A stretch of DNA of 64,000 nt from an uncultured Planctomycetia bacterium (lineage in GTDB: Bacteria; Omnitrophota; Gorgyraeia; 2-02-FULL-51-18), in NCBI GenBank assembly GCA_964431835.1, contig CAYSKO010000009.1:8330-72329 (forward strand). The letters are read 5' to 3'. The notes beneath the pieces are model-generated. The model searched no databases. It had not been told where the DNA came from and was given only the letters and a program-made list of their open reading frames with translations. Positions 25,701 to 49,700 of this stretch are shown here, piece by piece. The position numbers and the translations under genes are program-made. Each line of letters begins with the position of its first letter. The first letter of the stretch is position 1.

Positions 25701-28700
25701 TGAACTCCTCGCTCCGTTTCACGAAGGACGGCTGGGTGCCGGATACGACCACTTTCTACGTGCGCACGCGCTCGGTCTCCGAAACCTTCGGCGGGGTCAT
25801 GAACTCCGTGAACCCCGGTCTCGGCGAGATCACGGTCAACGGCCGTCCGATCAAGATCACGGGCTCGGTCATGCTGAACGGGCAATGGGCGAATCTTCAG
25901 ATGATTTCGGACCGTATCGCGCAGATGCCGGCCGGTTCGGGCATCGAGCTTCGCGCCGCGCCGCTGGTCTTCCGGAACGGCATCTGGACCAACGACACCG
26001 CGCAGACGCCGCAGTTCTTCACGATCCAGCCTCGCATGACCGCTTTCAGCGGGTCGGTGACCTCGTTCAATGGGACGTCGACCCCCAAGACGATCAGCGT
26101 GAACGGCCGCACTGTGATCCTGCCGGCCAGCATGAACATCTATGTCAATGACGTGTACACGACCCAGGCCAACTTCGAAAATAAGCTCGCCGCCGCCGTC
26201 GCCGCCGGTGGCCTCTTCGAGCTCTCTGGGGCCAACCTCATCGAAACGAACGCGGGCTGGACGCTGGACGGCGTGACGGTCATGTTCCGCGAGAAGACGC
26301 ACCAGCTGGCGACAGTCACCGCTCCGCTCAAGGGGATCGACCTTTCGGGTGTGCAAAAGACTCTGACCCTGACCGGCCGTACGGTGCGCGTGAAGTCGGA
26401 CGCGACGTTCTTGGTCGACGGTCGCTCGATGACACTCGCGGAACTCCAGACCGCGTTCAACGCGGCGGAAGCGGGAGGCTACGTGCTCGACGTGCAGCTG
26501 CCGACGCTGCGCAAAGTCGGAAACGACCTAGAAGCCGTCCCGACGCAGCAACAGGTTTGGCAGCCCAACATCGGCTGGACGTGGATCGACGGGCCGTTCG
26601 TCGTCACCTCCATCACGATGGCCCTGGCGGGACAATCCGCGGCGGCGACCGCGGCGAACGCAACCTCGAATCCGAAGACCGTGCGGGTAAACGGCCGCGA
26701 CGTCCGCGTCCCCGTCAATTACCAGTTCATGCTCGACGGATCGTACGTGCCGTTTGAGACCGTGGCCGCGCGCATCGCTTCCGTCGCCGAATTCGGCGGC
26801 ATGGTGGAGCTCGTGGGCGCCGCGACCAAGATGAACGCCGACGGCTGGGAGTTCAAGCCCTCCGTCCGCACGAACTCGTGGGGCCAGCAGTATTTGGCCA
26901 ACGAACTTCTGTTCTATACGAAGGACCAGATGTACGAATCCGTCGTTGGCGGTCTTACTGGCATCAACGTGGCGTCCACGCCGAAGACCCTCGCCGTTTC
27001 CGGCCGCACGGCGATCATTCCCGACGGCACGACCTTCACGATCGACGGCTCGCCGGCCGTCACGCCCGCCGAGCTCGCGACCCGTTTCGCCCAGCTGCCC
27101 GCCGGCGCCCGAATCGAATTCGCCTCCAACACGTCCATGCGTTTCACGAGTGGCGGCTGGGTGCTGACGCCCACGCGCGATTCGTGGGGCAATATCTACC
27201 CGATGAGCCTGACGACGAAGTCGATGAAGGAACAGTCGGTACGGGGAGCGGTGGGCACGGTCTCGACTTCGCCCCAGAGCATCACCATCGGCGGTCGCAC
27301 GTTCGCCGCCGAGGGCTTCGACGTGGAACTGAACGGCACGATCCTCACATTCGCCGCCGCCACGGCCGCGATCGCGGCACTGGCGGCGTCCGGTGCGAAC
27401 GTCGAGGTCACGAACGCGAACGCGAAGCTCGGGTCGAACGGCTGGGAGCTCGACACGATTATGGCGTCGGTCTGCAACAGCTGGAGCTGCTACAACCAGC
27501 CAACCAAGCGCTTGCAGATCCAGAGCGACTCGGCTTCGATCTCCGATGCCGACGGCCCGGTCACGGCGATCGGCGCGGACCGCAAAGCCACGATCCACGG
27601 CCGTTCGGTTGCGATCCCGGCCACCGCGGTTCTCACTCTGGACGGCCGCACCGTTACGTTCGCCGAGCTGCGCCAGGCGCTTTCGGACTTCCAGTCCATC
27701 GGCGCGGACGTCAATATTGAAAACGCTTCGATGACTTACGGCACGTCGGGCTGGGTCTTCACGCAGGGCTTCATGAACATGAACGGTATCGTGACGCTCG
27801 CGTTTTCTTCCGAGAGCTCGCGCCGCTCGGTCACCGGACGCGTGACGGCCGTGAACGAGGCCGCCGGCACCGTGACGTTCGCGGGCCGCGTCGTGAAAGT
27901 GAATCCGCAGATGAAGCTCAAGATCGAAGGCATCCTCATTCCGTGGACGGCGTTCGTCGAGCGTTTCCGCGCGTCCAACGCGTTCGACGCGCTGAACGCG
28001 ACGATCCAGTGGACGAAGAACGGCTGGGAGTTCGCGCGCCAGGTCACCCGCGACCAGTGGAGCAACGCCACCTACAATTACGACGTGAACTTCGGCGACA
28101 CGACCGCCACCGCCAACGGTTTCGCGGGCTCCGTCTCCGCCATCAACGTCGCCGGCGGTTTCCTGAACGTCAACGGCTCGAAGATCGCGATGCGGCCGGG
28201 TCTCGTCATGACGCTGGACGGCGAGCGCGTCACGCTCGAACAGCTGGCTGCGAAGATGCAGGCAAGCACGGCGCTCGGCAACCTCACTTGGCTTCAGAAT
28301 TCGGGCATCCGTTTCATTTCGGCCGCGGAAGGCTGGACGTTCGATTCCTCGGCGATCTCGTTCGTGACGAAGGCGTCCTCGATGCGCACCTATCCGAAGG
28401 GCGTCGCCACGAAGATCGTTTCGACCGACGCGACCTCCACGGTGGTCGAGATGAGCGGAATCCGCTTCCGCATCGACGCGCGCACGGCGTTCACCGACGG
28501 CTCCTCCGACTACGCAGCGTTCGTCACCGCGCTGCAGGCCCGCCTGGCCTCCGGCGGCCGTCCCGTCCTCGCCGCGACGCTCACGTTCATCGGGGGAGAA
28601 TGGGTGGCCATGCGTTTGGGCTCGGTCGACGTGATTCAAAAGACCGATTCGTTCAACACCTTCGGCAAGAGCTACGCGATCACGCTCGACCCGGCCAATC

Positions 28701-31700
28701 CGGCGCGCGGCACGATGACGTCTTTCGGCGTCACCGGCCGCGTCGACGAGAGCACGGCGATCGTCGACGCGAAAGGCAAGAGCTTCTCGTTCTTCGAGCT
28801 CGTGCGCCTCGCCGAGGTCAATCAGGACCTTTACTTCGACGTCTCCTACGTCGAGATCGGCGGCGTCCGCACCGCCTCCCAGATCCGCATCCTCTCCGAC
28901 CTGTCGTCCTCTCTCAGCATGTCGTCCGAGCTCGAGCTTCTCGACGTGACGAATTCCAAGGTGAAGCTGAACGGCATCGAGTTCAAGGTGGTCGCGAACA
29001 CCGCCGTCACCGACCACGCGGGCAACGTGATCACATGGGCCGAGTTCCAGGCCCGCGTCGCCCGCAATGAGATCGATACCATCACGACGCTCGTCCGGGT
29101 CGCCTCGCTCCGCCTGCCGGACGGCACGTTCCAGGCCACCGCGCTCCAGATCCTCACGAAGCCGGTCGACGCTGAACAGACCCTGACCGAGACCGTCCAA
29201 GCGCTCGACACCGTGAACCGGAAGATCACGCTGAAGGGCGTCGCCCACTCGCTCACGGCCGACTTTAAACTCACCGATCCGGCGGGCGCCGAGAAATCCC
29301 TCTCGGATCTGAAGGCCCTGATGGCCGCCAACGCCCTCCGCGGCATCTCGACGACGATCCGCGCCGAGATGGTGAAGATCGGCGCGGAATGGAAGATCGC
29401 CTCGGCGGTCCTTTATACCGCGATGTCGCGCTCCGTGACCGATCGCGGCAACTCGCCCGATTCGTACGTGAACTCCGAGATCACGATCGTCGGCGAGAAG
29501 ATTCTGGTCCGCGGCGTGGAATTCACCGCGGAGAGCGGGATCGAGATCTTCGACGTCACGGGCGCGCCGGTCTCATGGGCGGAGCTTAAGCGTCTCCAGG
29601 CCCGCGACGCGGGGAACGGCATCCCGACGTACGCCCGCATGACTATCTCCGCCGAAGACCCGTGGAAGGTCATCGACATCCAGCTCTCGAGCGACGCGTT
29701 CGATCAGTTCTCCGGCAAGCTTTCGCAGGTGGATTTGAACGCGAACACGATCAAAGTCCGCGGCGAACCCGTGAGCGTCGTAGGCGTGCCGATCGTGGGT
29801 GGTGATTTCGGAGAAACGGTCTCGCTCGAGGACCTTTCCGACTGGATCGCCAACGATCCGCGCAAGCTGGTCGCGGCGATCGACGTCGGCGTCGACGAGA
29901 AACTGCTCGCCCTCACCGTCGACGGGACCCTCACTCAGGTCGCGACGGGATGCCGCGTCTACATGGCGAGCGGCGAAGAGATCACCACCGCCGACTTCGT
30001 GAATTACCACACCACCAATCAGATCCTCGGCAAGGACGTCTACGTGAAGGTCACGAAGGACGCCCAAGGCCGCGCGATCCGCCTCGACATCCGCGAGATC
30101 CGCCCGGGCCTCTTCGCCGACGTCAAGGCCGAGAAGGCCGCCGGCCAGTGGATCGCCAAGAAGGTCACCCTCCGCCAGGTCGAAGAGTTGCAGGTCGAGC
30201 GCGTGAACTACTTCGCGCTGACCGAAGCGACCGTTTCCGTCGGCGGCGTCCGCGTGACGGTCGACCCGACCACGGCTCTCACCGACAACACGGACCCCAA
30301 CGATCCGAAGGCGATGACGCTCGAACAGCTCGCCCACCGGATCTTAAACGACAGACGTCTCCAGTTCGAGGTGAAGACCGGCGATCCCCTGAAGCCGGCT
30401 CTCTCTGGAAGCCTCGTTTTCGGGGGTGAATTGACCGTCGACAACGTGACCAAGCAAGCCATCATTGACGGCGTCACCGCGTATCTGGCCGCGGAAGTGG
30501 CCGGCGGCCGGAAGACTCAGACCGCGATGGATTCCATCGTGAAATGGCTCCAGAAGCAGGACAGCCACTTCGGCATCAGCGCGTTCAGCGCCATGTCCAT
30601 CTTCACGAACCGCGTGGCCGGCGGCCTGCCGTCCCTGGTCAGTCTCGCGACCGAGACGATCGTCCGCGACATCGCCAAAGGCCTCATCCCCGACACGCCG
30701 AATTCGCGCGAACAGCTCCTTATCTCGTTCGAGGCGCTCAAGGAAGAGATCGCCGAACGCGCGGGCGCCCAGATCCACGCGTACAACATCGGCTTCTCCG
30801 AATTCAAGAATCTCCTCGCGGCCGGCGCCAAGCTCCTCGTTCACATGGGCGACGACCACTACATCACGGTCGACGAATACGACGCCGAAAACGACCAGAT
30901 CTGGTTCTACGAGGACAACCGCCGCGTCAGCGTCAGCGCCCACTATTTCCTCACCCTGTGGGACGGCAACGTCCTTTCCGGCACGCGCCCCCTCACCGGC
31001 GAATCCCTGACGGCCCAGCAGCAGCGTGCGATCCGCGGCGCCGGCCCCGGAATTTGGCAGGGCTACGGCTGGCTCCCGAACTGGGGCGGCGGCTGGCGCA
31101 ACCTGCACTATTGGGGCGCGCTCCCGAACTCGGTCCCGCTCAAGATGCGCGTCACGTCCTACGGCTATACGAAGCGCGACCTTCCTTCCGGTTCGCCTGC
31201 GATCTTCGACCACGTCTGGACCGTGGTCAAAGACTATAAAGAACGCCAGGACCGCCTCTCCGGCGACGAGCAGATCGGCGAGTACGAGCGCCCGCAGGAA
31301 CCCAACGACCGCCAGGAAGACTTCGTCAAGCGTATCTACATGCGTCCCGAAGCCGAATGGCAGGCCGACAACATCGACGACCAGGAATTCGGCCGCATCG
31401 TCGTGTACTGGACGAAGGACACGAACGGCCGCTTCACCGAGCCGGGCGTCGTCATCCATATGGACAGCGCAGGCAACGCGATCAAGGTCATCAAGAACAA
31501 CAACCGCTATCAGTGGGATCCGATGAACGGCTTCATCGACGCGGGCGGCTCCGAGCTCGGTTTCGAGATCGACGCGATCGGTCTCAAACTGGACGAGCGC
31601 GCCGATCCGGCCGGCGGCCCGGACGTCGACACGTACGTTCCGCTCAACCAGAACATCATGAACGACACGTACGACAACCAGCTGCGCCACAACGTCGTCG

Positions 31701-34700
31701 GTTCGCTGACGCTGTACCAAAAGGCCCGGGACGAACACGAGTCCGGCCGCTGGGACGCCTCGTACGCCCTGAAAGACGACTTCATGACGTACCTCGAGAC
31801 GGCCGACGAGTCCAAGAAAGACACGACGGTCCAGTATTGGAACGACGTCAACGCCAAGCTCGAAGCCTTCGGCGACGGGATGGTGAACCCGTGGAACCAG
31901 CTCATGCGCGAGTCCAAGGAATCGGTCGGGCAGTTCGCCACGAACGCGAACGCGCTCATCGAGGAGATGAAGGCCGCCTGGGAAGAACGCTGGCACGTCG
32001 CGCTCTTCCAGCATTTCTACACCGGCGAGCCGGGCGACAACGCCGGCAATATCCTCGCAAATTCCACCGAGATCGCCCCGTTCAAGGCGACCTCCCAACA
32101 GGTCAAGGATTGGATCAAACTGTACAAGATCCTCAAGAAACACGCGTCCTTCGAGTTCGTGAAGCCCTGGGAAGCGCTCAAGACCCACGTCACCGACAAT
32201 ATGGATCTCTCGAAGACCAAAGGCCACTTCGACGCGATGGCGACCGACATCGTGAGCGATCTCACGACGCAGCGCACCGCGCTCCTTTCCCTCATCAACA
32301 CGGATTTCGTTACCGACATCGACACCTACCGCGAGAACGTCCAGAAATCGCTCGACGAGATCGAGAAGATCCTCGGCAACAAGGGCGCCGCCGCCGACAA
32401 AGGCAAGCTCTTCACGAAGAACGCAGACCCCCTGGAATGGGATGTCGATCTACCCGGCGCGCTCAATGCGGACGTCAAGCGGCAGCTCGAAGACACGCGC
32501 ACAGCACTCAACGAAATTCTCGGCGAAAACGCCGGCGGGTACGACATCTTGAAGACGATCAAGACGAAGATGCACGACGACACGATCCAGAAGGCGGCCG
32601 ACATGCTCGGCGAGAGCAAAGGCGCCGGCACGGGTCTCGTGAAGACGGTGAAGGACGCGATCGGGGAGATGAAGACCCGCTACACGAGCTTCCGCGACGA
32701 TCTTCTTTCGAAGATCAACGCGGTCCTCACCGTCGCGAACACGATCAACAACCCGAACTTTGTCCTCATCAAGGTCGCTAACGTGCACTCCGAATGGCCA
32801 CACCCGCGCCCGCCGCGCCTCAACGGCGTGGGCGGCGGCACGATCGCCAACGGCGTATGGGTCCACACGCAGGATTTCGGCCCGGGCTGCGACGATGTTC
32901 ACTGGGAAGAGGAAGTGGTCGCCAAGGGCAGCATCGAGCTCGACTTCGCGGGCCTGAATCAGGTGAAGAATTATTTCGACGCCATCAAGGGTTTCGAGGG
33001 AATCGACACGCAGGATCTGATCCAGGACCTCACCGACAGCTATCAGAAGATCACGACGAAGGCCGCGCAGGAGCTGAAGACGGCCGCGACCATGGAATTC
33101 GAGGCCCGCAAGACCCTCAACAAAGCCGACCGCGACCTGACGAAGCACCTTGGCGAGGCGATCGTGAAGCGGAACGCGGCCTACGACGAGCTCAGCCAGG
33201 AGCTCTTGATCGAAAAAGATCTCGTGAAATTCGCAGACCAGATGATCGACGAGTCGAATTCGGACGAGCGCCAGAATCCGGCCAAGGCCAACGACTTCGA
33301 GCAGTTCGCCACCAAGAGCAAGATGTGGGACGACCGCAAGGCCGAGCTCGAGAAGGCCGAGGCCTCGCTCATCAAGGTCAGGGGCTGGCTCGACGAGGAC
33401 AAGCTTTTCGGGATCAATGCCCGCGGACAGAAGATTCTCGACGACGCGTTCTGGCAGAACAACATCAAGGGCGAAAAGGGCGGCATTTTCACGAGGGCCG
33501 TCGACCCGCTTCACTCGAAAATCGGCGTGATGGGCCGCGAAAAGCTCGGTATCCTTTTCTCCACGAAGGGGATCTTCGAAGGCACAGACGGCGTCATGGG
33601 CGGGACGCAAGCGGACAGCACCGTATCGGTTCTGTGGGATTTCGCGGACCGTCTCGCGTCGACGGCGTACCAGTCACGTAATTTCTTAACGGCGCTCCGC
33701 GGCGCCCGCGGCGAGCATCTGGACGGCTCCCTGAACAAGGTCGATCCGCCGAAGGGCACCTCGCCGATCCAAATTCGCATCCTCAACCACATGCACTCCG
33801 GGCCGCGCGTGCCCACGGAAACGGTCCCCGATCCGTCGGACTCGAAAAAGACCATCACGCGCCCGATCCCGATGTATTGGGAGAAAAAGATCGCCCGGAC
33901 CGCGGACCGCCTCCAGCGCTATTTGGAGGGCACGGTCCCCGAAGGCAGTAGCCTGCCGGTATTCGCTACGATCGTCGATCCCTTCGACGCGAAGAAAGAA
34001 CTGAGGAAACAGCCGACGGCCCGCCAGCGCTACTTCGCGGACGCCCGGAAGGCTTCGTGGAAGTACGTGGGTCTTTATAAGGGCCCGGACACCGAAAACA
34101 AGTATTACGACCCCTATTTCGACACCGGCTTCAGCAACGATTACAAGGACCCGGTGCTGCCGCCGCTCCTCAACGCCGGCACGGACGAGCGCCAGAGCCT
34201 CGTCAATGCGGACCCGTACAAGATTGGCCTCACGGGCAAGCAGGTGGTCCACAAGGCGAAGACCAACGACGCGCGCAACTTCGACAACGACGACTGGTTC
34301 GGCTACTACGGCTGGAACCGCGACGAATCCGTGATCGACGCGTTCAAGACGCGCGACATCGACAGCTTCAAGCGCCTCAAGACGGCGTACCACGTCGATA
34401 CCCGAAAGTATGTGGAAGACACGAAGAAGGCCCAGGAGCAGGGCGCCGATAAGCAGTTCCAGGACAACATGCTTCGGACCGACACCTGGAACAACTTCGT
34501 GGTCCAACAGGCGGTGTTCAACAAGAACAAAGCGCTTCTGCGCCTTCAGTATCAGGAGGCCAACACCAAACGCGGCTTCGTCGTCTCGCTTCAGAGCTCG
34601 GTGAAGACCTTCTATAAAGCGTATGCGGCCATGCGCCAGCAGTTCGACCCGAGCTACACGCTTCCGGCCGCCGTTCAGCTGGCGCTTAACCGCAACGTCG

Positions 34701-37700
34701 CGACGTTCAACACGACGAGCATCGGGATGCTCGATACGTACCTCGCGCAGTACGAGGCGCTCTACAATCAAGGCACTTCGGTCATGGGTACCATCAAGGT
34801 TGGTGGCATGAACATCGGGTCGATCGAGGCGGCCCTCAATCGCGCGGGTCAGGGCATGCAGGAAGGCGCGGGACAGAGCGCCAAGGGCTATGCGAAGTCC
34901 ATGTCGAAGCTCGCCCAGAGCCGCCAGCAGACGTGGCAGGGCTATTACCAGCAGATGGACGAAATCCAGACCAAATACCAGGCTGCGGTGAACCTCGCGA
35001 AGGAAAACAAGACCAACACGTACGCCGACGCGAGGTACGGTTGGATGACGATCACCGACGCGCTCGGTGGCGCCGGCGCCGCTGGCAAGGCGAAGAACGC
35101 CGACGAGTGGGGCATCGTCTCGAAGCTCATGACGAACATCGAGGACGACATGGCCAAAGCTGCCGGCGACGACAAGAAGATCGCTTCGTGGTGGAACCGC
35201 ATGATCAACAACAACCATTCGGACAACACGAAGCAGTTCTGGTTCAGCGGCTTCACGCCGACGGCAGGCACCGGCGGCGACATCCTCGGCGCGGACTCGG
35301 CCACGAAGGCGTACATGGCGGTGACCCGGCAGTTCCAGAAATGGCAGATTGGCGACCTCGAGACGAAGGTAACCGAAGGCGGCGCGGAGAAAAACTACAT
35401 CCGCCACCGCGACGCGTCGCTCGAAAATCTCGAGGCGAACCTCCTGACCGAAGGCTACCAGTGGAAGGAAGTCCAGGACAAGCGCGCGACGGTCCTCCAG
35501 CGTGCGTCGGGCGCCGACTCGATCTTCCTCAACAATTTCTACGGCACGCAGACGCTCGCCGAAGCCGCGCAGGTCGCCAACCGGTTCAATGGCATGATCG
35601 ACGGCCTCACGATGCACCTCATCGGACAGGCGAAGGGGAAGGCGTTCTTGAACGTCCAGGTAGCCGACATCAACGACCAGGCCGCCCAGAACAACAACTT
35701 CGCGAACGGCCCGGCGGCCGTGCGTATGCGCAAGGACCGCCGCGGCGTCCTCTCGTTCAACTACGACCGCGAGAGCGGCACGATCCAGATGTCGCGCATG
35801 TTCAAGGGCCGCATCGCGTGGGATGTCCAGCAGAATGCGATCACGGGCCGCGTGAGCGGGTTCACGAACCACACGTACTCGTGGGAGTTCCGCCAGAACG
35901 CCCGGGGCCGTGAGCAGTGGATGCTCCAGGATTCCGCCCAAAGCCACAACGACGCGGGAGCCGCGCAGGGCGATCCGCGCATCACGATGGGCCGCTTCAC
36001 GCTGGACGGCCAGGGCAACTTCAAATTCATCAACGTGGCCTTCAAGCAGGACGGCCACATCGTGACGAGCTTCACGACCGGGACACAGCAGCGCGCGGAC
36101 GGCGTCAACGTTACGGTCACGAGCTATTTCCGCGGCTGGATCGACGGAAACGGCCGCATCAAGGATGAAAAGATCATCGGTCAGCAGCACGACGACGGGC
36201 TCGGAAACGCCGACTCCATCAGCTTCGCGCGGGCGTCCCACAGCGGCGACAGCTACACGCTCCGCTTCATCAACGGCGCGCGCGCCGGGGACAGCGAACG
36301 CCACATCGTGAGCCACTCGTACTACCTCGTGCGCGACACATTCGGCAATCTCCTTCGCGTGAAGCGCAAGAACGAACGCATCGAGGCTGTGAACACGCAC
36401 TTCGTCGACCCGTCCGACAACCGGAACCGCGTCACCACGCAGGTCACGGTCACTCTCAGCACGACAAACGCGCAAGGCATCTCGATCTCGACGACGTTCG
36501 CAGGCGGCGAGCGGGTGAGCGGCGGGATGGCAAACCGGTTCTTCAACACCGCCGGCCGCCAGCTGATCGCACTCGACGGCTATTACGCAAACGAGCGCTC
36601 TCTCCGCGGCACGTTCCAGAACTTCTCCAATGCCGGCTTCCAGAGCGTGAACATCAGCCTGGGGAGCGTCACTTACGGCTCTCAGCGCGGCTCGAACGCC
36701 ATCCAGGTTTCGACCACGACGCTTTCAGCCGACGGCACCGTTGTGAACGCGAGCTTCGGCGTAGGCCGCGGCCTGAACATGAACACGCTCCTGGGCACCC
36801 TCCAGAACCAGATTGGTGGCACGGACACGGCGAACGCGGCGAACCAACTTGCGTTCATGACGCAGTTCAACAACACGAATCTCTATGCGGGCTTGCAGGC
36901 CACGTTCCGAAACGCCGCCGGCGTCGAGATGTTCCGCCTGGCGCCGACGAACAACCGAGTCGAACACCGAGAGGTCGGACACGACAATGCCGGTCGCAAT
37001 GCCGTAGCCTGGGTGGGTGGAACCGTCGGCGGCAACGACGCGCTCGCAAACGGAGCGAAATTCAGAAACGACATGGCGGCCCTGAATCTCAACGACAATA
37101 CTGCCCGTTTAGCATTCATGAAGACGTTCGAAGCCGGCTCGGAATTCGTTGCTGGCGGAGCCGCGGCCAACGAGCAGCGACGTACAGGCGGGTTCACGCT
37201 TGAAGTGACCTTCTTCGCGAGCCGCCTGGAGGCGCAGATGGCGCCGCAGAACTTCCGTATCGCCGGCACGGAAGCCGAGGTCGAATACCAGCAGTTCGGA
37301 CGCGGCTCCGACGGCACTGTCATGGCCACGTGGGTCGGGCGCGACGAAGCCAACGGCAGAAACGCCCTCCAGAACGGCGCCGCGATGGCCGCCGCCGCCA
37401 GCGTCACCAACCTTTCTACGAGCGCACGCCGAGAGGCTTTCCTGAAGCAGTTCGAGACGCCTGCGATCCGTCTCCGCGATCTTCTGGGCCCGGCGGCGGC
37501 GCTGGCAGCGGCCTTCGGCCTCCCGGTCGACATGCAGATCCGCCGCGGCGGGTTCTCAGTCCAGGCAAGTTTCGAGAAACGCAACAGCGCGGGCTCCGTC
37601 TTGGGCGGCGCCGCCGAACAGATGCGTATCCAGGGCGGCGGCTCGCAGGTCGAAGTCTTCCGCGTTTCGACCAGCCGCGACGGCACCGTCGTGAGCGCGT

Positions 37701-40700
37701 GGCTCGGCCGTACCGAAGGGCCCGCGGGGACCGGCCGCACGGCCGTCGAGAACGGAACGACCTTTACGACCGCTGTCGGCGCGCGCGGTACTGATCTTTC
37801 GACGGCGGCACAGCGTGAGACGTTCCTGCGCACTTTCGAGTCGCGCCTCGTGCCCCCGCCCCCGGGCGCCGGCGTCCAAGCGCGGCAGGGCTTCGGCAAC
37901 AATCAGGCCTTCCGTGTCGGCGGCATGGCGGTGCAGGTTACCTTCGAGCGCGGCTTTAGCAACACCGACGTGATGCGCATCAGTGGCCAGCAGGGACAGG
38001 TCGAGGTGCAGCGCTCAGTCCGCTCGGCGGATGGCACGCAGTCGACGTTCTGGGCGGGCCGCAGCTCCGGGTCCAGCGCCGGGCAGAACGCCTCGCACGC
38101 CGCCGGCGAAGCCCGCCTCGCGACCCTCTCGAGTGGGCCTTTGCGCGAAGCGTTCATCCGCCAGTTCGAAGCGTTCAACTTCTCCCTGAACGCGTCGTTC
38201 GAGAAGAACGGCCAAGCGCAGAATATGCGAATCGCGCAGGCCGGCGCCCGCTTGGAAGTTCAGATCGTCACGGGCGACCAGCACGGCACTATTCTGACCA
38301 CCTGGGTCGCGAGGGGAGACGCGCCCGGTTCGACCGCCCTGGCGAACGCGAGCAGGGTCGCCGCCGACGCGCGCGGCGCCGATCTGCGGACGACCGCAGA
38401 TCGGGAGGCTTTCATCAAAAAGTACGAAGCTCGCGACAACGCGCTTCCTCCGGGGAGCTCGCTGAACGCCCCCGAGCGGGCTCTCTTCCGCACCGGCGGC
38501 TTCGCGGTCCAGGCGACTTTCGAAAGAAACGGTTTCAGCGAACAGATGCGTATCAGCGGGTCCACGGGCCGCCTGGAACTCCTGCGGACGGTCCGCGACC
38601 AATCTGGCACGACCGACGTAAGCGCCTGGATCGGAGAAGGCGGCGGCCGCACGGCGGCCCAGAACGCAAACGATTTCACGACGAAGGCCGCGACCACCGA
38701 TCTTTCCGACTCCACGAAGCGCGAAAATTTCCTCAAAACCTTCGAATCGAAGCTGTCCGGCTTAAATCCCTTGGCACAGGCGTTCCTGGGACTCGTCGGC
38801 GCCGACAACCTTCTATCCGCGCTGGGCGGTTTCTCGATCAACGCGACGTTCGAACGCGAGGGCGTGAGCCAGCAGATGCGCATACAGGGCACCTCGAGCC
38901 AAGTCGAAGTCCAGGTCTTCGTGCGCAGCGGCAACGTCGAGGTCTCGGCGTGGATCGGGCGCAGCGGAGACGCCTCAAGCGCCACCGCGAACGCCAACCT
39001 CTTCGCCAATCGCGCGGCGGCAAGCGACCTCTCCACCCCCGCGCTGCGTGAAACTTTCATGCGCCAGTTCGAATCGACGATGCGTAAGGTCGGTGGGTCC
39101 GCGACCCCCGGGATGCCCGCCGCTCAACAGATGCCGGTCGGCGGATTCTCGGTGATGGCTTCGTTCGAGCAGAACGGTGTGAACCAGCAGATGCGCATCC
39201 AGGGCCAGGGCGCGCAGGTCGAAGTACTCGCCACGGCGCGCGCGCAAGACGGCACGGAGATCTCCGTGTGGGCGGGCCGCTCCGAAGGTCCTGCCGCCGA
39301 GCAGATTTCCGCCGCCGACAAAGCTTCCCGGATTTCGTCTCTCGCCGCGCAGACGGGGCTCACGACCATGGCTTCTCGCGAAGCGTTCATGAAGTCGTTT
39401 GAAGGCGCCCGGTTCTCGGCGAACGCCTCGTTCGAGAAGGACGGCGTCTCCCAATCGATGCGGGTCGGATCTCACGTGGGAGCCGTCGTCGAAGTCCAGG
39501 TCACCGCCAAGAACGCCGCCGGCGTCGTCGTTACCGGCTGGATCCCCCGCACCGCCACCGCTACCGCCACGGAGAACTCCGCCGTGGTCGTCACCGCGGC
39601 GAGCACCGCCAATCTGACCACGACCCGTCAGCGGGTGGCTTTCATGGAGCGCTTCCAGTCCACGCTCCAGCCGATCGGCCCGAACACGCAGGGCCGCGCG
39701 GCGACGGAGCTCGTTCAGACGGGCGGAATTCCGTTCCAAGCCAGCTTCGAGCATCAGGGAATCAGCCAGAACTTCCGCATCACCGGCCCCGGCGCTCGCG
39801 TCGAAATGCAAGTGACCGTCCGTGGCAAAGCCGCAGCCGACGGGACCACCACGGACGTAACCGGCTGGGTCGGCTCGAACCCGGGCGGCGACTTAATCGC
39901 CAATGCCAACGAGCTGGCCAATCGCGCCGCCGCGACCGATCTCAACTCCGTGGCCGCCCGCGTCGCATTCATGCGAACGTTTGAATCGAAGCCGGACCTC
40001 GGCGCGACTCTCGGGGCGGCCATCACCAACCTCCTCACCGGCCAGGGCCTACCGCCGCGCAGCATGGTCCATACGGGCGGCTTCTCTGCGAGCCTCACCT
40101 TCACGATGAACGGCGTCCCGCAGCAGATGCGCGTCATGGGCACGGGCTCCAAGGTCGAAATCTTCACGTCCGTTAAGAACAACGGCGGCACCGTGGTGTC
40201 GGGCTGGATCGGCGGCAACAACACGACGTCTCCCGACCAAGTCGTTTTGAACTTCGCGGCCGCGGCCGAAACCGCCGACCTCTCCACGGGCCCCTTGCGC
40301 GAAACGTTCATGAAGACGTTCGAATCGACCACCGCCGCGGGAACGCGGGCGGAACTCGAAAACCAAGATATGAGCCTCCTGACGCTCGTTCCGCAGGGCG
40401 GTGCGGCTCTGAACGTCACTTTCGAATTGGACGGCGTCACCCAGCAGATGCGCCTCCAGGGCCCCGGCGCGAAAGTCGAAGTTCAGGTGACCGGCCGTTC
40501 CGGCGACGGCACGAATGTCGTCGCGTGGGTCGGTCGCGACAACCGTGGCAACACCGCGGTGGCCAACGCCGACCTCGTTTCGGCCCAGATCGCCGGTTCC
40601 GATCTCGGAAGCGCGCAGACGCGCCTTGCGTTCACGCGCCAGTTCGAAGGTTCGCCGTCGAGCCTCGGCGCCACGAATTCCCTGGGCGTCAGCGAAAACC

Positions 40701-43700
40701 AGCTCTTTGCCAACGGGCGCACCGTGAACATGACGTTCGAAACCAACGGCGTGACCCAGCAGATGCGCATCCAGGGCCCCGGCGCGAAAGCGGAGATCTT
40801 CGTCCAGGCGCGCGGCACCGACGGCACCGAGGTCGGCGCGTGGATCGGCGGTACGACGAGCAACAACGCGTTCGCCATCGGCGGTCCCGACGCGGTCGCC
40901 AACGTCGCCGCGTTTGCCAACGCGGCCGCCGCCACGGACCTCGGCAATTCCGCCAACCGCGAGACGTTCATGCGGACGTTCGAAAGCAAGAATTTCCCGA
41001 TCCAGGCCACCTTCGAAAAGGGCGGTATCACCCAGCAGATGCGCATCCAGGGCCCCGGCTCGCAGGTCGAAGTGCTCGTCCAGACGAAGTCCAAGGACGG
41101 CGTCGTGCTCGGTCTCTGGGTGGGCCGCGGTGCCGGGCAGAGCGCCACTCAGAACGCGGGCACGCTCGCCGCCGAAGCCGCCGACCACGACATGCGGACT
41201 CAGCCCCAGCGCGAAGCGTTCCTCTCACGGTATGTGCGCGAGCCCGCGACGAGCGCCACCGCCCAGGCCCAGGGCTTCAGCCCGAACCAGGTCTTCCCGG
41301 CGGGTTTCTCGGTGAACGCGACGTTCGAACTGAACGGCGTGAGCCAGCAAATGCGCATCCAGGGCCCCGGTTCCAAGGTCGAGATACTCGTTACCGCCAA
41401 GAGCCACGATGGTACCGACACCGCCACGTGGATCGGCGGAGGGAACGGCCTCTCCGCGAGCCAGGTCGGCCGTGCGTTCCAGCTCGCGGTCTCGACGGCC
41501 AATCTCACGACCGCCGCCCAGCGCATCGACTTTATGCGTCCTTACGAGCGCGCCGGCCACGCGGTCAGCGTCACGTTCGAGAAGAACGGCGTGAGCCAGC
41601 AGATGCGCATCACTGGCCCCGGCGCCCAGCTCGAAGTGCAGGTCATGGCCCGCGGCACCGACGGCACGATCGCGACCGCGTGGGTCGGCCGCGGTAATTC
41701 ACGCGACCACGTCGCAAACTTGAACGAATTCGCAAATCTCGCGGCCCGCGCGAACCTCTCCACTCCGGAGCGTCGCGAGGCGTTCCTTCGCCAGTTCGAG
41801 CAGTCGAACGTTCCTCCGCCGTCGGCCGCCGACGTGAACGCCGGCACCGCCAACGGAACGTCGCCGATCACCATCGGGACGGCGGGCACGCGCACGGGCG
41901 CGTCCTACGGCCTCACGGTTACCTTCGAGAAGGACGACATCACCCAGACGATGCGCATCGCGCAGGCGGGCGGGCAGGTCGAAGTCCAGGTGAGCGCCAC
42001 CAGCACGGACGGCACGCGCGTCACCGCGTGGGTCGGTCGCACGAACCGCGAGAGCGCTTCGAGGACGGCCGAGATCGTGGGCGGCTCGATTCAGTCCGCC
42101 GACCTCTCGACCCCCGAGAAACGCCTCGAATTCATGAAAACCTTCGAACGCAACGGCTCCGACCTCACCGGCGATGCCGCGACGACGTTCAACCGCCAGC
42201 GCGGCTTCTCGCTCTCGATGACCTTCGAGAAGGACGGCGTCACCCAGCAGATGCGCATCCAGGGCCACAACCGCGAAGTGCAGGTGTTCGCGCAGTTCCG
42301 CTCGGCGGACGGCGTCCTCTGTGGCGCGTGGGTGGGCGCGGGCCGCGGCGGCGCGAATGCCGTTGCCGCTTCCACGGCGCTCGTTAACGAAGGCACCGCC
42401 GCGAACCTTGCCACGGAAGACCAGCGCGTCTCGTTCCTTCAGGGCTTCGAGGTCGCGCAGGGCGGCGTCGACATCTCGGTCAATTTTGAAGTGGGCGGCG
42501 TGCTTGTGCAGTCGATCCGCATGAACGTCACGCCGCGGGCCGACGCGCAGAACGGCGACCGCAATTTCACGATGACGATCACCGACTACAACCCGAACGG
42601 CACGCCTTCGCGCGAACGCACCACCGAAGGCGTGCTCGTCAACCGGATCCAAGTCACGTACCAGCAGCGCCACGAGGCGTCGGTGAGCCGCGCCATCGGG
42701 GACCAGTTCCGGGCCGCCGGCAGGGGCCTCGCCGGTTTCGTGGCGGGCGGCGGCGTGTCGATCAGCACTGTCGGCCTCGTCACCGGCACTTTCAGGGGCG
42801 GAATGGCTTTCGTCTCCGCCCAACGCGACCCGACAGCCGATTACTACACGACCGAAACGTACATGCAGGACTTGAATCCTCCCGTGTGGGACGCCCGCAC
42901 GACGACGACGCGCGAGTTCACTTACAACCCCGACGGCAGCTCCTCGGTCGACACGACGCGCACAACGCACAACGCAGGCGTTTTCGACCACTACACCGAC
43001 ACCTTCGTTCCCGCGGGCGCCGCCACGACGACGGTCGAACATTCCGAGTACAACGCCGACGGCGACCGCACGCGGATGACCTCGACGACCACGAACCACC
43101 AGAGCGGGCAAGTGACCGAGCAGAACGGGACCGGCGCTCGAGACGCGGCGACCGGCCAGTGGGTCGAGACGATCAATACGACAGTGAGCAACACGCTGGC
43201 CGGCGGCGCCGACGGCACCGCGGCCGATCAGCCGACGAGCCGCACGCGCGACGTGATCCGCTTCGACGCCGACCACCGCGAAGTTTCCCGCACGCACACG
43301 GATGTCAACGCCGCGGGCGTCGAGTCGAACCCCGTGACCACGCAGCGTATCGTGTACAACGACGGCTCGGTCGGCGTGCAGACCACGCGCGGTGCGCTCG
43401 ACGGCCCGCGGACGGTGCACTTCCAGCGCCTCGACGAGAACGGTGCGCTCATCCCAGGTTCGAGCGTCATGCAGGTGTTCGGTGGCGCGGGCAACACGCT
43501 CGCGGCGTACACGATCCAGGTGAACGTGGCCCGTGAAGGACAGCCCCCGCGTTTCGAGGCGCGTTCGACGATCGTGAACCCGAGCGTTACGCTGAACGGG
43601 CAGAACGGGTACATGAGCATCGGCGTCTCGGCGTCGCACCAGCGCGCGATCGACACCTACGGCCTCACTCGGAACGCCAACGGCACCTACAGCAAGGCCG

Positions 43701-46700
43701 GCGACACCGGAGTTTACCGTCTGAACGCCGACGGCACCGTCCACTACTCGGGGGGAATGGTGGGCGGGACGTACAACCGTCCGTCCACCCTGACGCATTA
43801 CACCGCCGAGGGAAGCGGGGTCTGGAGCTTCGAGTTGTCCGCCGCCGGCCCGCCAGCCGCCGGTCAGCTGTACTTCATCGCTGCGGACACGACCACAGGC
43901 CCGACGACGGCCTCGCACCGAACGATCGCCACGCTCTACAACCTTTCGTCCGTGAACGGGAGCAGCAATTTCGCGAACTCCGACACGAATTTCCGTTACA
44001 CGTTCCAAGCCGACGGCACGGTCCTCGCGACGGACGTCCGCACCGGCCGCTCTCAGGTGGGCACGCTGAACGCCGCCGGAAACGGGGTTACGTGGAATGA
44101 GAACGCTTCGCCGCGGGCTCCCGCAGGCGGCGGTCCCATCGCGGTGACGTTGCCGGGCAACGACACCGTCACGCTGACCGGCGGCACGAGCGGCTTCCGC
44201 ATCACCGAGAACGGCACGGCGATGACGACCGAAGACATGATTTTCGCGGGTCCCGGCGGCCAGAGCCAAGTGCTCCGCCGTGGTGCCGAACTCAGCCTTT
44301 CGAACGATACAAACCACAACGTTAGCATCATCTCGGGCGTGATGGAATTCAACGGCGGCGCTTCCGCCAATCTCCCGAACGGCCACCTTCAGACCATCCA
44401 GCCTCCGACCCCGCCCGCCGAAGGGGACACGAGCAACGACCGGAATCAGGCCTCCGGCCCTACGACTAGTTCCCCCGGCCTCAACACGACTATCTCGCGC
44501 GACCCCGGCGGCCGCCTTCGCCTCACGGGCTCCATCGCGATCCAGAACAATCAATTCGTGATCACCGAAGGCCAGCGGATCAATATCAATACCACCGGCG
44601 ACTTCCGCTTCGGCGACCGGGCGATGACCCAGCAGGGCTCGTTCATGTTCGCGCGCCTCACCGAGCCCGATCCGAAGAAGCGCGAAGCGAACCCGAATCG
44701 CAACCAGCGCGCCGAGATCGTGACGCTCGGCGACTGGCAGTCGAACCAGCGCGCGCACCTGAGCCACACGTTCCCCAAGGAAGGCGCGACCGGGCTCCAG
44801 CGCCATTACAAGACTGAGGCCGAAAACGCGATCAACGATGGCAACGCCTCCCGCGCAAGCGCCGCGATGAACATGATCAGCGCCGCGGGCCAGGCCTACG
44901 CCATCCGCGAGCTTTCGGGCAGCGGCGCCCGAGAGCTTAACGACGTCGCGCAGAGCGGCACCTTCAACAACTTCGGGTACAATGACGTTCTCACCGAAAT
45001 GGACGAAGCGCAGCTTGCGCAAATCATCGGCGGCAACCGCCAGTTCGCCGCGTTTGTCGGGACTTATATGACCCTCCGCGGCATCCACCAGCAGCAGGAA
45101 GCTCACAAGGACGACGACGACGTGAAGGCCCAGCGCGCGCAGTTGGCCGCCATCGGCTTCAACCTGAGCAGCGACTACGATTGCGCCCGCTTGGCGCAGG
45201 CTCTCTCGGAGCCAGACTCCATGCTCCGCATCGAAGTGGGAGGCACGAGCCGCTACCTCCGCACCAAGGACGTCGAGGTCGGCGGCAAGAAACTCGAGAA
45301 GTGGGTCAAGGACGCTTCCAGCGACCTGCGCACGTGGTTCGACGAAAAGGCCTACGAAGAGAACGGTGGCAGCGGCAGCAAACTCACGTGGTGGGACCGC
45401 AACAAGTCGTACGTGTACATCGTGGGCGCGATCGCGCTCGCCGCCGCCACCTGCTGGATCCCGGGCGTGAACGTCGTGACGGCCTCCATCGCCGCGGGCG
45501 TCGCGTTCACGGTCGCGGTCGTGGCGCAGGTCGTCGCGAAAGGCCTCGACAATCTCCGCAAAGGCAACGGCTTCTTCACCGGGATGGCGACGGAGTGGAA
45601 TTGGAGCCCGATCGATAAGAACGGCATCCTTTTCAACGCAATCAACGCGGCCGCGCAGAGCTTCGCGCTCGCCAACGGCCTTGCGGCGCTGGGCCAGCTC
45701 GTGAATCACATCAAGTCCGCCGCCGACGTCGCAAAGAACGCGGGCCAAACGCTGACCACCGTGCAGCGCGTGGCGACCTCGGTGCAGGCCATGGGCACCG
45801 TGACCCGCGCGGTCACCTTGGGCCTTACGTTCGCCGCGGCGAACGTGGCGATGACCGTCGGTGCGCAAGCCGTCGAGAACATCCTGAGCGGGAAGGATAT
45901 CGGGCACAAGATCACGGCCGGAATGGTGTGGACCGCCGCCATTCAAGGTTTCGTCGTGGGCGTCACGGCGGGTTACGGCGCGAGAATGTACGGCGCGAAA
46001 GAGGCTTTCGCCAAGGCCACCGCGGGAATGCTCACGCGCGGCGCCATCACCAACGGCGTCATCGCGACCGCTCGCGCGGTTCAGTACGGCGTGATGTTCA
46101 CGGTGCCGTCCATGATCATGTGCGGTCTCGGCTTCCTCCTGGCCGCGGAAGTAGGCGCCGCGGCGGACGGCAAGACTCTGACCACGACCGACCGCGTCAC
46201 CGCGTTCGTCTCCGGCGCGATCGTCGGCATGATCATCAACTACGCGACCTCCCACAAGGCGACCGCGAAACTGAACGATTTCGCCAAGAACACCGGCAAG
46301 CTCGGAAGCGAATCCGGCAAAGGATTCCGGGACGGCGTCAAGTGGACCTACCAGCAGGGCTCCGCGTGGCACGTCACGAAGACATTCGGTCTGGGCGCCC
46401 TGGAGTGGGGCACGATGGTGTCGGTTCCGTTCACGATCGCCAACGGCCTCGTCGACGCGATGAAGAACGGGTTCGCCAACGGCGGTGGCATCGCGGGCGC
46501 CCTCAAGGGCATCATCGGCTGGTTCCACCCGATGACCGGCTTCACGATCCGGGGTCCGAGCGGCAAGCAGGACGATCAGGTCCGCATCGGTTCGCGCCAC
46601 GGCCTCGGCATGCTCTCGAACGCGATGACGCACGGCTTCATGGAAGGCCTCTATCTGAAGCCCATTCTCGGCGCCTTCCAGAAAGTGCACACGGCGCCCC

Positions 46701-49700
46701 CCCTCGGCGCTCCGGTTCAGGGGTGGGGCGGCTGGGCGATCGAGAAGTCGGTCCATCTCACATTCGACCAGGCGCACATGGCGTTCGAAATGGACTTCAT
46801 CAGCCGGGCGCTCGAGCTGGCCTCCCAGAAAGACGAGCACGGACACGACCGCGCCAGCACTGGTTTCAACGCTTTCACGGCGAACCTCATCATGTGGACG
46901 GTGCTCATCACGAAGCCCGAGGCGCTTTCGCGCGGCGGGTTCAAGGAATTCGCCCGCGAGATGAAAACCCACGCCGCGCAGGCCGAAGGCGTCCGCGCGA
47001 CGGGCCAGGGCAAGAACGACGGCGGGCTCAATACGAGCGTCGCGCGTCCCGAGACGATCGCCGAGACCGGCCAGCGCCTTGCCGAAAGCACGGCCGCCGA
47101 ACGCCAGACCGCCGCCGAAGAAGCTCCAAAGCATCAGCAGGCCGCTCATGAGCAGCTGAACCAGGATCTCGCCAACAACGTCCCGAAGGCGGAAGCGGTC
47201 GCCCGTTTCAATATGAACGTCGCTGAGGCGGACGCATCCAATGCCGCACGGACCCACGGCACCGGCTCCACCCAGCACTCCGAGGCGCTCACGCGGCTTT
47301 CGAACGCGCTCGCTGACGGTCAGGGCAAACTGCCGAAGGCCGAATTCGAAGCCGCCAAGCAGAATCTCACGGAACAATTGAACGAGGTCAACGCGTACCT
47401 CGCAGGCGGCACAGCGACGAACGCCGAGCTCGCGGCCGCCGCGCACCTCGCCGTCGCCGCCGCTCCGGTCGCCGGGCAGACGGCGCTCGCCACGACCGTT
47501 CTTCAGCAGATGCGGACGGCCGTCGCCGCGAACCCGGCCGAGGCCAAACAACTGGTCGACGCGTTCCGTGCGATGAATACCGCCTTCCAGACGTCCGTCT
47601 GGGACTCTGTACGCAAGTTGCTGACCGGCGAAGGGAACCCCATGACAGCGCTCCTCGCCGACGCCGCCGCGAACGTGGCCCGCACCGCCCTCGACGCGTG
47701 CAGGCCGGAGAACGTCGTCGACGCCGCTTCGGCGAAAGCCGCTTCCGAGGTGCTCAGCGCGCTGAACGGCGAAAAAGTCTTCCAGAACGCGATGAGCGAC
47801 GGGCAGAAGGCGCAGGTCCAAGCCCGCGCGCTCGAAATCGAAACGAAGGTCGGCGAGCTCATGAAGACGGAAGTCGACGTCACGAATCTCGAGATCTTGA
47901 TCGACACGATCTCCGCTCTCCAGGGCGTGAACGCCGCGGTCGGCACGGCCTCCGCCGCCACGATGCTCGAAGCCACGGGCAAGGCCCGCACGGCGGCTCT
48001 CGACAAGCTCCGCGAATCCAACCCCACGAAGGACGGTTACGACAAGGCCCTTGAAAACACCGAAAAGGCGTTCGAGCTGAGCACGAAAGCCACGGCGATC
48101 GTGACGCGCTCCACGGCGAAGACGCCCGCCGTCAAAGCCGCGCTCCAGACTAACGCCGACAGTCTGCTCAAGGATTCGGCGACGGCCCGCGAGAAGGTCA
48201 CGGCGGACTTGGAAGGCGCCATGGGCCCCTCGAAGGCCGGACTCAAGTTCATCGGCAGCATGATGAAGTTCCTTCAGGCCAACGCGAGCTTCCTGTCGGC
48301 CGCGATGCTCGAGATGAAGAACGCGGGTGTCAAGATCGACGCCGACGGCGTGAAGGCCAATCTCAAAGCGGTCGTGGCGACCGTCGAAAAGGCGCTGACT
48401 TTCGTCGCAGAGAATTTCGCCGATTTCGCGAAGTTGGGCCTGGACGGCCTGAACATGGTCGCCGACGTCATGAAGGCTTCGATGGATCTCCTGCGCCTGG
48501 CGGCCAAGGAAGGCGTCAATATCGAGGCGGCGACCGTGAAGCTCGTCGAATTGGCCGGCAAGTTCATGGCCCACATCGCGGACGCCAACATCGAGAAGCT
48601 CGTGGGCGGCGACTCCGGCAAGCTGCTGAATCTCGCGAACATCATCAACATCAACGCCCAGGCCATTAAGTTCGCCGCCGACGTCCTCGGTCCCGAGCAC
48701 GCGGCCGTTCAGGAAGCGGCGGAACACCTGGCGAACGCGATCACGAAGGTGAACACCTACATCGCCAACAACGTGAACCGCCTCATCGGAACCGACGCCG
48801 CGAAGCTCGCGGACGTGGCGAACGCCCTCACGATGAACGCGCAAAGCCTGCGCGTGGCCGCCGAGATCCTCGGTTTCGAGAACTCCGCGGTCCAGAAGGC
48901 CGCCACGACTCTCGCGGACGCCATCACGAAGGTCACGAATCACGTCACGAAGAACCTCGCGGCGATGGTCGGCGGGGACGCGAACAAGCTCGCGACCGTC
49001 GCTTCGGCCATCCTCGCCAACGCCTCGTCGCTCGGTGTCTCGGCCTCGATCCTCGGACACGGCCACGCGTCGGTCGTCGCGGCGTCCCGCGCGATCACGA
49101 ACGCCGTCCGGGCTATCACCGCACACACGAGCGCCAACTTCAACGCCCTGGTCAAGGACGCGAGGTCGCTCGAGAAAGTCACGACGGCCCTCGCCGACGC
49201 GGTCACCGCCCTCACGCGCGTCGCCACCAGCATGTCGCTCAACGCCAAGGACTACCGCAAGCTGAGCGAGGCCTCCGGCGAAGTGTTCTCGCTCATCGCG
49301 GGCAAGGTGTCCTCGGCGATCTCGACGATGGCGGACAAGGCCTCGACCGCCGCCGAGATGCGCAGCGTCGCCAACGCCCTCACGAAGGCGATCAACGCCG
49401 TGAACGTGATGGCTCAGCGCAACATGGTGGACGGCGTCGACGCCGCGAAGGTGACCGAGCGCCTGAGCAAGACGCTGGTGAAAGTGCTCGAAACGATGTC
49501 GGGCCAGAAGGCCAAGGGCAACACGCTTGCCGAGAAGATGAAGAACGCCCTCGAGAATTCCGTGAAGGGCGAAATCTGGTCGGGCCTCGAGACGGGCGCC
49601 AAAGCCGACATGCTGAAGGCCGCCCGCGCGGCTCTAGGCGGTGAAGCCGCCCGCGTGATGGGTGAAGGCGAGATCGGCGCCGCTGTCAAACAGGTCTCGG

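Follow-up and report, generated by a model that had tools for sequence, protein, structure and literature searches.

In a 64,000-nucleotide stretch of DNA from an uncultured bacterium placed in Omnitrophota (GenBank assembly GCA_964431835.1, contig CAYSKO010000009.1, positions 8,330 to 72,329 of the forward strand; the whole stretch is called the window here), part of one giant protein contains a tandem array of 18 clear and one to three degenerate copies of a unit of about 85 residues, which we call the QQMRI-type repeat. The array covers amino acids (aa) 12231-14153 (nucleotides, nt, 36692-42460), and the unit is an uncatalogued family in Pfam, NCBIfam, PHROGs, and PADLOC. With modest confidence, we favor the reading that it is a lineage-restricted structural repeat that forms a rigid membrane-proximal beta-ribbon or tubule, acting as a spacer in a giant membrane protein. 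It probably corresponds to the "antiparallel beta-helix tubule with exterior paired helices" predicted by West-Roberts et al. (2023; bioRxiv 10.1101/2023.11.21.568195).

The array lies in a single open reading frame (ORF) that contains all the other features described here:

nt 2..64000, plus strand: single giant ORF, a stop-free frame with GC fractions of 0.61, 0.47, and 0.85 at codon positions 1, 2, and 3

By direct frame scan, frame +2 is stop-free over 21,333 codons and open at both window ends, and the window is an internal piece of one still larger giant gene; because the ORF runs off both ends, no long plus-strand ORF appeared in the ORF list that accompanied the sequence. Amino acid position i of the window protein corresponds to nt 2+3(i-1). 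The window has 65% GC overall (60-70% along its length), and the encoded protein has only 0.1% cysteine and 13% alanine.

The repeat array and its boundaries are as follows:

nt 36692..36880 (aa 12231-12293, with strands from about aa 12205), plus strand: degenerate first copy, profile E 2e-5 to 7e-6
nt 36893..42460 (aa 12298-14153), plus strand: 18 clear copies of about 85 aa, defined by profile, with linkers of 0-34 aa
nt 36893, 37223, 37553, 37925, 38180, 38498, 38828, 39143, and 39413, plus strand: core starts of copies 1-9
nt 39728, 40079, 40406, 40721, 40994, 41303, 41558, 41912, and 42203, plus strand: core starts of copies 10-18
nt 42461..42751, plus strand: half-unit cap (GGVDISVNFEVGGVLVQSIRMNV...), recognized by eye, with a unit-like start that then departs from the pattern

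A profile derived from the copies recovers the 18 full copies at E 1e-25 to 1e-40 each (72-124 bits) and nothing significant outside the array in the rest of the 21,333 residues; none of 20 shuffled versions of the array exceeds 0.2 bits. Matches to a regular expression for the MRI...VEV core are confined to aa 12418-13984. The unit consensus is xFxxxATFExxGVxQQMRIxGxGxxVEVQVxxRxxDGTxVxAWVGR...NA...A..AA..DLxT...REAFMxxFE; R, W, R, and F do not vary among the copies, and the consensus agrees with the conserved core quoted in the original prediction, which had been made from the sequence and its ORF list. That prediction counted about 21 copies, a figure that holds if the decayed ends are included, 18 being solid by profile, and it placed them at 36450-42600, which is correct if slightly generous. 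By eye, a further decayed copy is visible at about aa 12150-12230, and the half-unit cap lies at aa 14154-14200. The copies share on average about 40% pairwise identity, equal at every separation; no super-repeat among them and no periodicity in linker lengths was found, and Tandem Repeats Finder reports no DNA-level repeat in the array. The array is therefore old and has been conserved at the protein level by selection. Most inter-unit linkers (13 of 17) are 12-34 residues long and rich in glycine, alanine, and proline, and five of the 18 junctions have linkers of 0-3 residues, four of these lying between full units and one leading into the C-terminal cap.

Structure prediction was applied to one unit and to a run of six:

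nt 41303..41554 (aa 13768-13851), plus strand: reference unit modeled alone by AlphaFold2, predicted local distance difference test (pLDDT) 91.2, predicted template modeling score (pTM) 0.75
nt 40718..42457 (aa 13573-14152, 580 residues), plus strand: six consecutive units modeled together by AlphaFold2, pLDDT 74.5, pTM 0.57

For the reference unit, modeled from an 18-row unit alignment, AlphaFold2 predicts strands at unit residues 4-10, 13-20, 25-33, and 39-45 and helices at 52-65 and 71-82, in the order beta1-beta2-beta3-beta4-alpha1-alpha2, that is, a four-strand antiparallel meander with a helix pair backing it. The strands alternate between hydrophobic and polar residues, and E9, R19, E29, and W50, all invariant or nearly so, lie on the helix-free face, as would be expected of a face under structural constraint, such as one lining a lumen or making contacts between turns. 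All four strands and both helices recur in every unit of the six-unit model, in which disordered linkers make up about 15% of residues. Its pTM of 0.57 suggests fixed packing between units, as six independent 85-residue domains would be expected to score far lower.

Nothing in the collections searched accounts for this unit, as the original prediction had proposed in finding no known family for it. Pfam places no family over the repeat within aa 10001-15000, finds nothing in a single unit at E<=10, and gives only scattered one-off matches in the six-unit piece (DnaB_bind, 21.1 bits over 22 residues), so that no confident match to a Pfam repeat family appeared. Comparison of the unit with NCBIfam, PHROGs, and PADLOC returned nothing, a profile search of Protein Data Bank (PDB) sequences returned nothing significant (best E 0.098), and Foldseek found no solved or viral structure resembling the predicted unit in PDB or BFVD.

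When 1.84 billion protein cluster representatives were searched exhaustively for relatives with a HMMER profile, three proteins were returned, here P0001, P0002, and P0003. Two are true relatives, P0001 (MDD5488947.1) and P0003 (MFH1798694.1); both come from Candidatus Omnitrophota metagenome-assembled genomes (MAGs), with GC contents of 43% and 56% versus 65% for the window, and both are truncated fragments of giant proteins, with frames open to the contig edge. The third, P0002, is a ChW-repeat protein (397 bits to ChW) that matches about 50 residues of the unit at no more than 13 bits per stretch and was rejected as spurious; Pfam ChW (PF07538) has no match in the window units. P0001 carries six full copies, and the residues upstream of it are the tail of a further, partial copy, which makes at least seven. 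After them come, in order, a half-unit, a hairpin-rich segment bearing [YF]xxxDG motifs, and a dense glycine-rich transmembrane (TM) block, so that the transition at the half-unit is of the same kind as in the window. P0003 carries two clear copies, then a spacer of about 600 residues, then a Gly-zipper TM block, and a Pfam search of its flanks gave a sub-threshold Gly-zipper match only. Directly upstream of its two QQMRI-type copies stand 18 other tandem units of about 100 residues (aa 1579-3459, contig positions 4844-10486), the last of which is transitional and carries the DLST...FMSQFES tail of the QQMRI type. This shared tail hints at a broader, very divergent repeat superfamily, for which hhalign gives no confirmation. 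The Omnitrophota contig of P0003 (JBDRBY010000055.1) also encodes an RHH antitoxin and PIN toxin pair at 23261-23923, flanked by giant ORFs of 7,655+ aa and 7,557+ aa.

Other searches returned no further carriers. A word-indexed search of 5.8 billion proteins, queried with the unit alignment, with P0001 and P0003 units added, and with the N-terminal part of P0001, found nothing; P0001 is present in that collection and was not recovered by its own sequence, so this negative reflects a limit of the index and is unreliable for such repeats. Genome contigs scanned with units of the window and of P0001 gave no matches, and a first scan of metagenome contigs was likewise empty. A degenerate DNA motif (W-V...[DN]xxT...RE[AT][FL]...FE) matched two window units, with zero matches expected by chance, and two metagenome loci carrying it failed the profile test and were set aside as chance matches. 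The repeat family is very rare in public data, the collections searched not including the source of the window itself; the carriers now known beyond the window are the two Omnitrophota MAG fragments.

Downstream of the array, the window protein continues with three segments relevant to its placement:

nt 42752..45391 (aa 14251-15130), plus strand: beta-hairpin-rich "YD-like" segment with recurrent [YF]xxxDG, no Pfam RHS repeat
nt 45410..46258 (aa 15137-15419), plus strand: membrane block of about six hydrophobic, Gly/Ala-rich segments, defined by hydropathy
nt 51155..52348 (aa 17052-17449), plus strand: transglutaminase-like cysteine-protease domain with its flanks, Pfam core aa 17235-17340 at 24-26 bits (cutoff 23)

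The array ends about 980 residues before the membrane block. In both relatives the repeat likewise stands upstream of a glycine-rich multi-TM block, and P0001 shares the hairpin-rich segment between the two, with a weak match of window aa 14299-14364 to the equivalent part of P0001 (E 4e-4). The transglutaminase-like core has a conserved Cys (in GVCR), His, and Asp. On the P0001 contig, the ORF directly downstream encodes a coiled coil and a transglutaminase-like core that matches window aa 17052-17449 (phmmer 1e-17; BLASTP 4e-22, 30% identity), with the Cys, His, and Asp positions aligned by BLASTP. The array, the hairpin-rich segment, the TM block, and the transglutaminase-like domain are thus in collinear order in the window and at the Omnitrophota locus of P0001. 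The distance to the membrane block, the position upstream of multi-TM blocks in both relatives, and the pTM of the six-unit model all support the earlier proposal of a membrane-proximal structural module. The label "YD-like" given to the adjoining segment fares less well and is kept here as a description only, since Pfam RHS_repeat (PF05593) is absent at E<=10 from the units, from aa 14153-15130, and from the equivalent part of P0001.

The unit model suggests how such an array could build a larger structure. With both strand and helix counts even, the chain would leave each unit on the side of strand 1 of the next, and consecutive units could then connect along their edges, producing a single long antiparallel ribbon with about 76 strands and, on one face, a helix pair for every four of them. 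Such a ribbon may curl into a rigid superhelix or hollow tubule, which would act as a fixed-length membrane-proximal spacer linking the membrane block to the roughly 12,000 residues upstream. By a geometric estimate from general beta-sheet dimensions, 76 strands at 4.8 Å each would give a ribbon of about 36 nm, and coiling at 4-6 units per turn would give a tube of roughly 9-12 nm. The junctions of 0-3 residues fix the end of helix 2 beside strand 1 of the next unit, and the longer linkers therefore make most sense as loops inserted at a junction that stays constant.

A structure of this predicted kind has been described. For the giant proteins of Omnitrophota, West-Roberts et al. (2023; section 10 and Fig. 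5A) report AlphaFold-predicted, tubule-like antiparallel beta-helices of about 1500 residues with regularly spaced exterior alpha-helices, paired in the Archaeovorin type, and the authors liken them to Rhs shells. The host there too is a giant multi-TM protein, and the sequence relatives of the window repeat come only from Omnitrophota MAGs; both show antiparallel strands broken up by helix pairs at regular intervals, a match at the level of secondary structure only; the lengths are comparable (about 1,500 aa in the published case, about 1,950 aa in 18-19 units here); and neither belongs to a known domain family. The window differs in its GC content, which lies above that of both Omnitrophota relatives. 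The array would thus be a sequence-defined example of the published predicted kind, the superstructure idea itself being already in the preprint. A catalogue of the domain architectures and topology of such proteins is given by Nielsen and Lui (2026; 10.64898/2026.06.07.730766); within the sections consulted and by a term search, that work makes no mention of this element.

Several points weigh against the ribbon or tubule reading. Continuity of the sheet between units and a hollow tubule both go beyond the unit model. The six-unit model was built from an alignment of only three rows (non-overlapping blocks) and has a mean pLDDT of 74.5, and the long Gly/Ala/Pro-rich linkers, most of 12-34 residues, are modeled at pLDDT <50, which flexible tethers would also fit. 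The published tubule (genome SR-VP_..._416_C) is likened to the array by figure and description alone, and hhalign aligns the window unit with the 18-unit array of P0003 at a probability of 16.5%, which does not establish homology. As to the membrane side, the loops of a six-segment model have Lys plus Arg (K+R) counts of 3/0/7/2/5/2/6, a pattern that favors a cytoplasmic position for the two flanks of the TM block. This count is at odds with the Peptidase_S8, CBM35-like, and ConA-like domains upstream, which suggest an exported N-terminal part; the segments come from a crude hydropathy estimate, and the topology would flip if their number were odd or if a TM segment lay upstream. The "periplasm-spanning" role once suggested for the array is accordingly not established, the loop charges and the extracytoplasmic look of the N-terminal domains pointing different ways.

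The linkers are also where the main structural alternative begins. If the units were independent alpha/beta domains joined by Gly/Ala/Pro-rich hinges, the array would be a flexible string of beads, a tether like the Ig-like extenders of adhesins, and both the 13 long linkers of low predicted confidence and the confident folding of a single unit on its own are in keeping with this. We nevertheless think it unlikely: independent domains would not be expected to give a six-unit chain of 580 residues a pTM anywhere near the one obtained, the five junctions with 0-3-residue linkers leave no hinge, the conserved polar and aromatic residues on the helix-free face argue against simple exposure to solvent, and a matching continuous structure has been predicted for related proteins by West-Roberts et al. 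That same conserved face could instead be a ligand site, E9, R19, E29, and W50 contacting a cell-wall glycan of prey or host, or a partner protein, with about 19 copies providing avidity and any structural role secondary. An invariant Trp among charged residues on an open sheet face, the lectin- and CBM-like domains upstream, and the adhesion and cell-wall degradation roles proposed in the literature for such giant proteins are compatible with a multivalent binding array. We regard this as improbable, because the unit has no sequence or fold likeness to known binding modules, a membrane-proximal rather than distal position is odd for a target-binding surface, and the R-E-E ladder and Trp are equally explained by cross-strand salt bridges and packing between turns. 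More speculative still, and in our view very improbable, is a conduit, in which about 19 units would wind into a tube with the Glu-Arg-Glu-Trp face lining its lumen, and the tube would be continuous with a chamber formed by the hairpin-rich segment and with the glycine-zipper membrane segments, making a secretion or injection channel from a single polypeptide; if this were true, the giant protein could thread its own distal part or move material into or out of an attached cell, prey or host.

Location is a separate matter, in that a cytoplasmic scaffold would be compatible with the ribbon or tubule structure. On this account the array and the whole N-terminal part of more than 15,000 residues would be cytoplasmic, anchored by helical hairpins, and would organize enzyme-like modules. 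The loop counts of the six-segment model favor both termini inside; Nielsen and Lui class 46% of Omnitrophota long proteins as "TM-only," with their bulk predicted to be cytoplasmic; and no signal peptide is visible, the true N-terminus lying outside the window. Against these stand the upstream Peptidase_S8, CBM35-like, CE2_N-like, ConA-like, and 3-keto-disaccharide-hydrolase-like domains, which are typical of exported proteins, and the findings of West-Roberts et al. that most identifiable domains of such giants are extracellular and that full-length ones have signal peptides near their N-termini; the segments behind the loop counts are also crude. We consider a wholly cytoplasmic location improbable. 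The idea that the array is a compositional artefact or non-coding repeat, whether GC-rich low complexity or the trace of a gene on the other strand, is refuted. The high GC content and long antisense stop-free stretches (up to 2,644 codons, for example 41702-49633 on the minus strand) that overlap the region might have suggested it, but the antisense frames have their GC peak at codon position 1 and no Pfam family matches, and we rejected them as genes, as the mirror image of a sense frame with 85% GC at third positions. The per-copy scores set against those of shuffled sequence, independent homologues in genomes of 43% and 56% GC, and a confident fold prediction argue the same way.

Among known architectures, the shells built of Rhs/YD repeats (TcB/TcC toxins, teneurins, and Rhs effectors of type VI secretion systems) are comparable in that they consist of an antiparallel beta-hairpin ribbon wound into a hollow shell, and in the window a hairpin-rich segment bearing [YF]xxxDG motifs follows straight on from the array. 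The window units lack the YD motif, however, and Rhs shells lack helix pairs; no fold likeness to solved YD shells was found, the only such Foldseek match, to a teneurin, being noise (TM-score 0.11). The T-fold of GTP cyclohydrolase IB, QueF, and PTPS also combines a sheet of four antiparallel strands with two antiparallel helices packed on one side, and when such sheets meet at their edges they form a barrel or tunnel that has the helices on its exterior. Its order is beta-beta-alpha-alpha-beta-beta rather than the beta4-alpha2 of the window unit, though, and T-fold proteins are separate subunits, enzymes with active sites at their interfaces, rather than tandem repeats; Foldseek matches to T-folds were at noise level only (E 0.2-0.9, TM-score about 0.2). 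Extenders of giant adhesins (tandem Ig-like/BIg domains of RTX adhesins, E-G5 of SasG) resemble the array in placing many copies of a small domain between a cell anchor and distal modules, where they plausibly set reach. They differ in their all-beta Ig-like fold, in usually being near-identical at the DNA level, unlike the diverged window copies, and in being anchored at the outer membrane or cell wall, whereas the window protein has an internal multi-TM block. Leucine-rich-repeat and other alpha/beta solenoids likewise have a continuous sheet on one face and helices on the other, with curvature or a superhelix, but leucine-rich repeats use parallel strands, one per repeat of about 24 residues, and have no sequence or fold match to the window unit.

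Proteins of 20,000-150,000 residues are among the least understood bacterial gene products, with most of their length unannotated, and the array provides a sequence-defined, confidently foldable unit for one large "dark" region of such a protein, within a module order that the high-GC window has in common with an Omnitrophota MAG. As a profile, the unit could be the starting point for a new domain family and mark the membrane-proximal core in fragmentary giant genes, and a fragment of 85-600 residues would be tractable material for an experimental test of the predicted tubule. The value is limited by the prior appearance of the structural idea in a preprint and by the inferred nature of the function.

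The approximately 12,000 residues upstream of the array contain Peptidase_S8, CBM35/CE2_N-like, ConA-like, and 3-keto-disaccharide-hydrolase-like modules and several other repeat arrays. No Walker A motif occurs anywhere in the window protein. Near the start of the window, nt 74-3990 (aa ~25-1330) hold another, much younger tandem repeat with a period of 234/468 nt, about 16.6 copies, and about 70% DNA identity, whose protein tiles match one another at E about 1e-90; protein-level repeats extend to aa ~1840, and Pfam matches of this region to Lipocalin_3 and SEP are weak and were dismissed as spurious. A complete Peptidase_S8 (subtilase) domain follows at nt 6872-7606 (aa 2291-2535; E 9e-35). 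Because West-Roberts et al. (2023) note S8 domains close to the N-termini of giant proteins in Omnitrophota, the window may start a short way from the true N-terminus. Within nt ~10200-28500 (aa ~3400-9500) there are four further internal repeat arrays: one at aa 3400-4940 is CBM_35_2/CE2_N-like, one at aa 4900-6230 matches 3keto-disac_hyd (E 6e-27) and Laminin_G_3, and those at aa 6400-7460 and 7900-9500 match no family. Beyond the membrane block, nt 50000-58000 show a very strong excess of A over T on the coding strand (skew 0.38-0.44, versus 0.05-0.25 elsewhere in the giant ORF).

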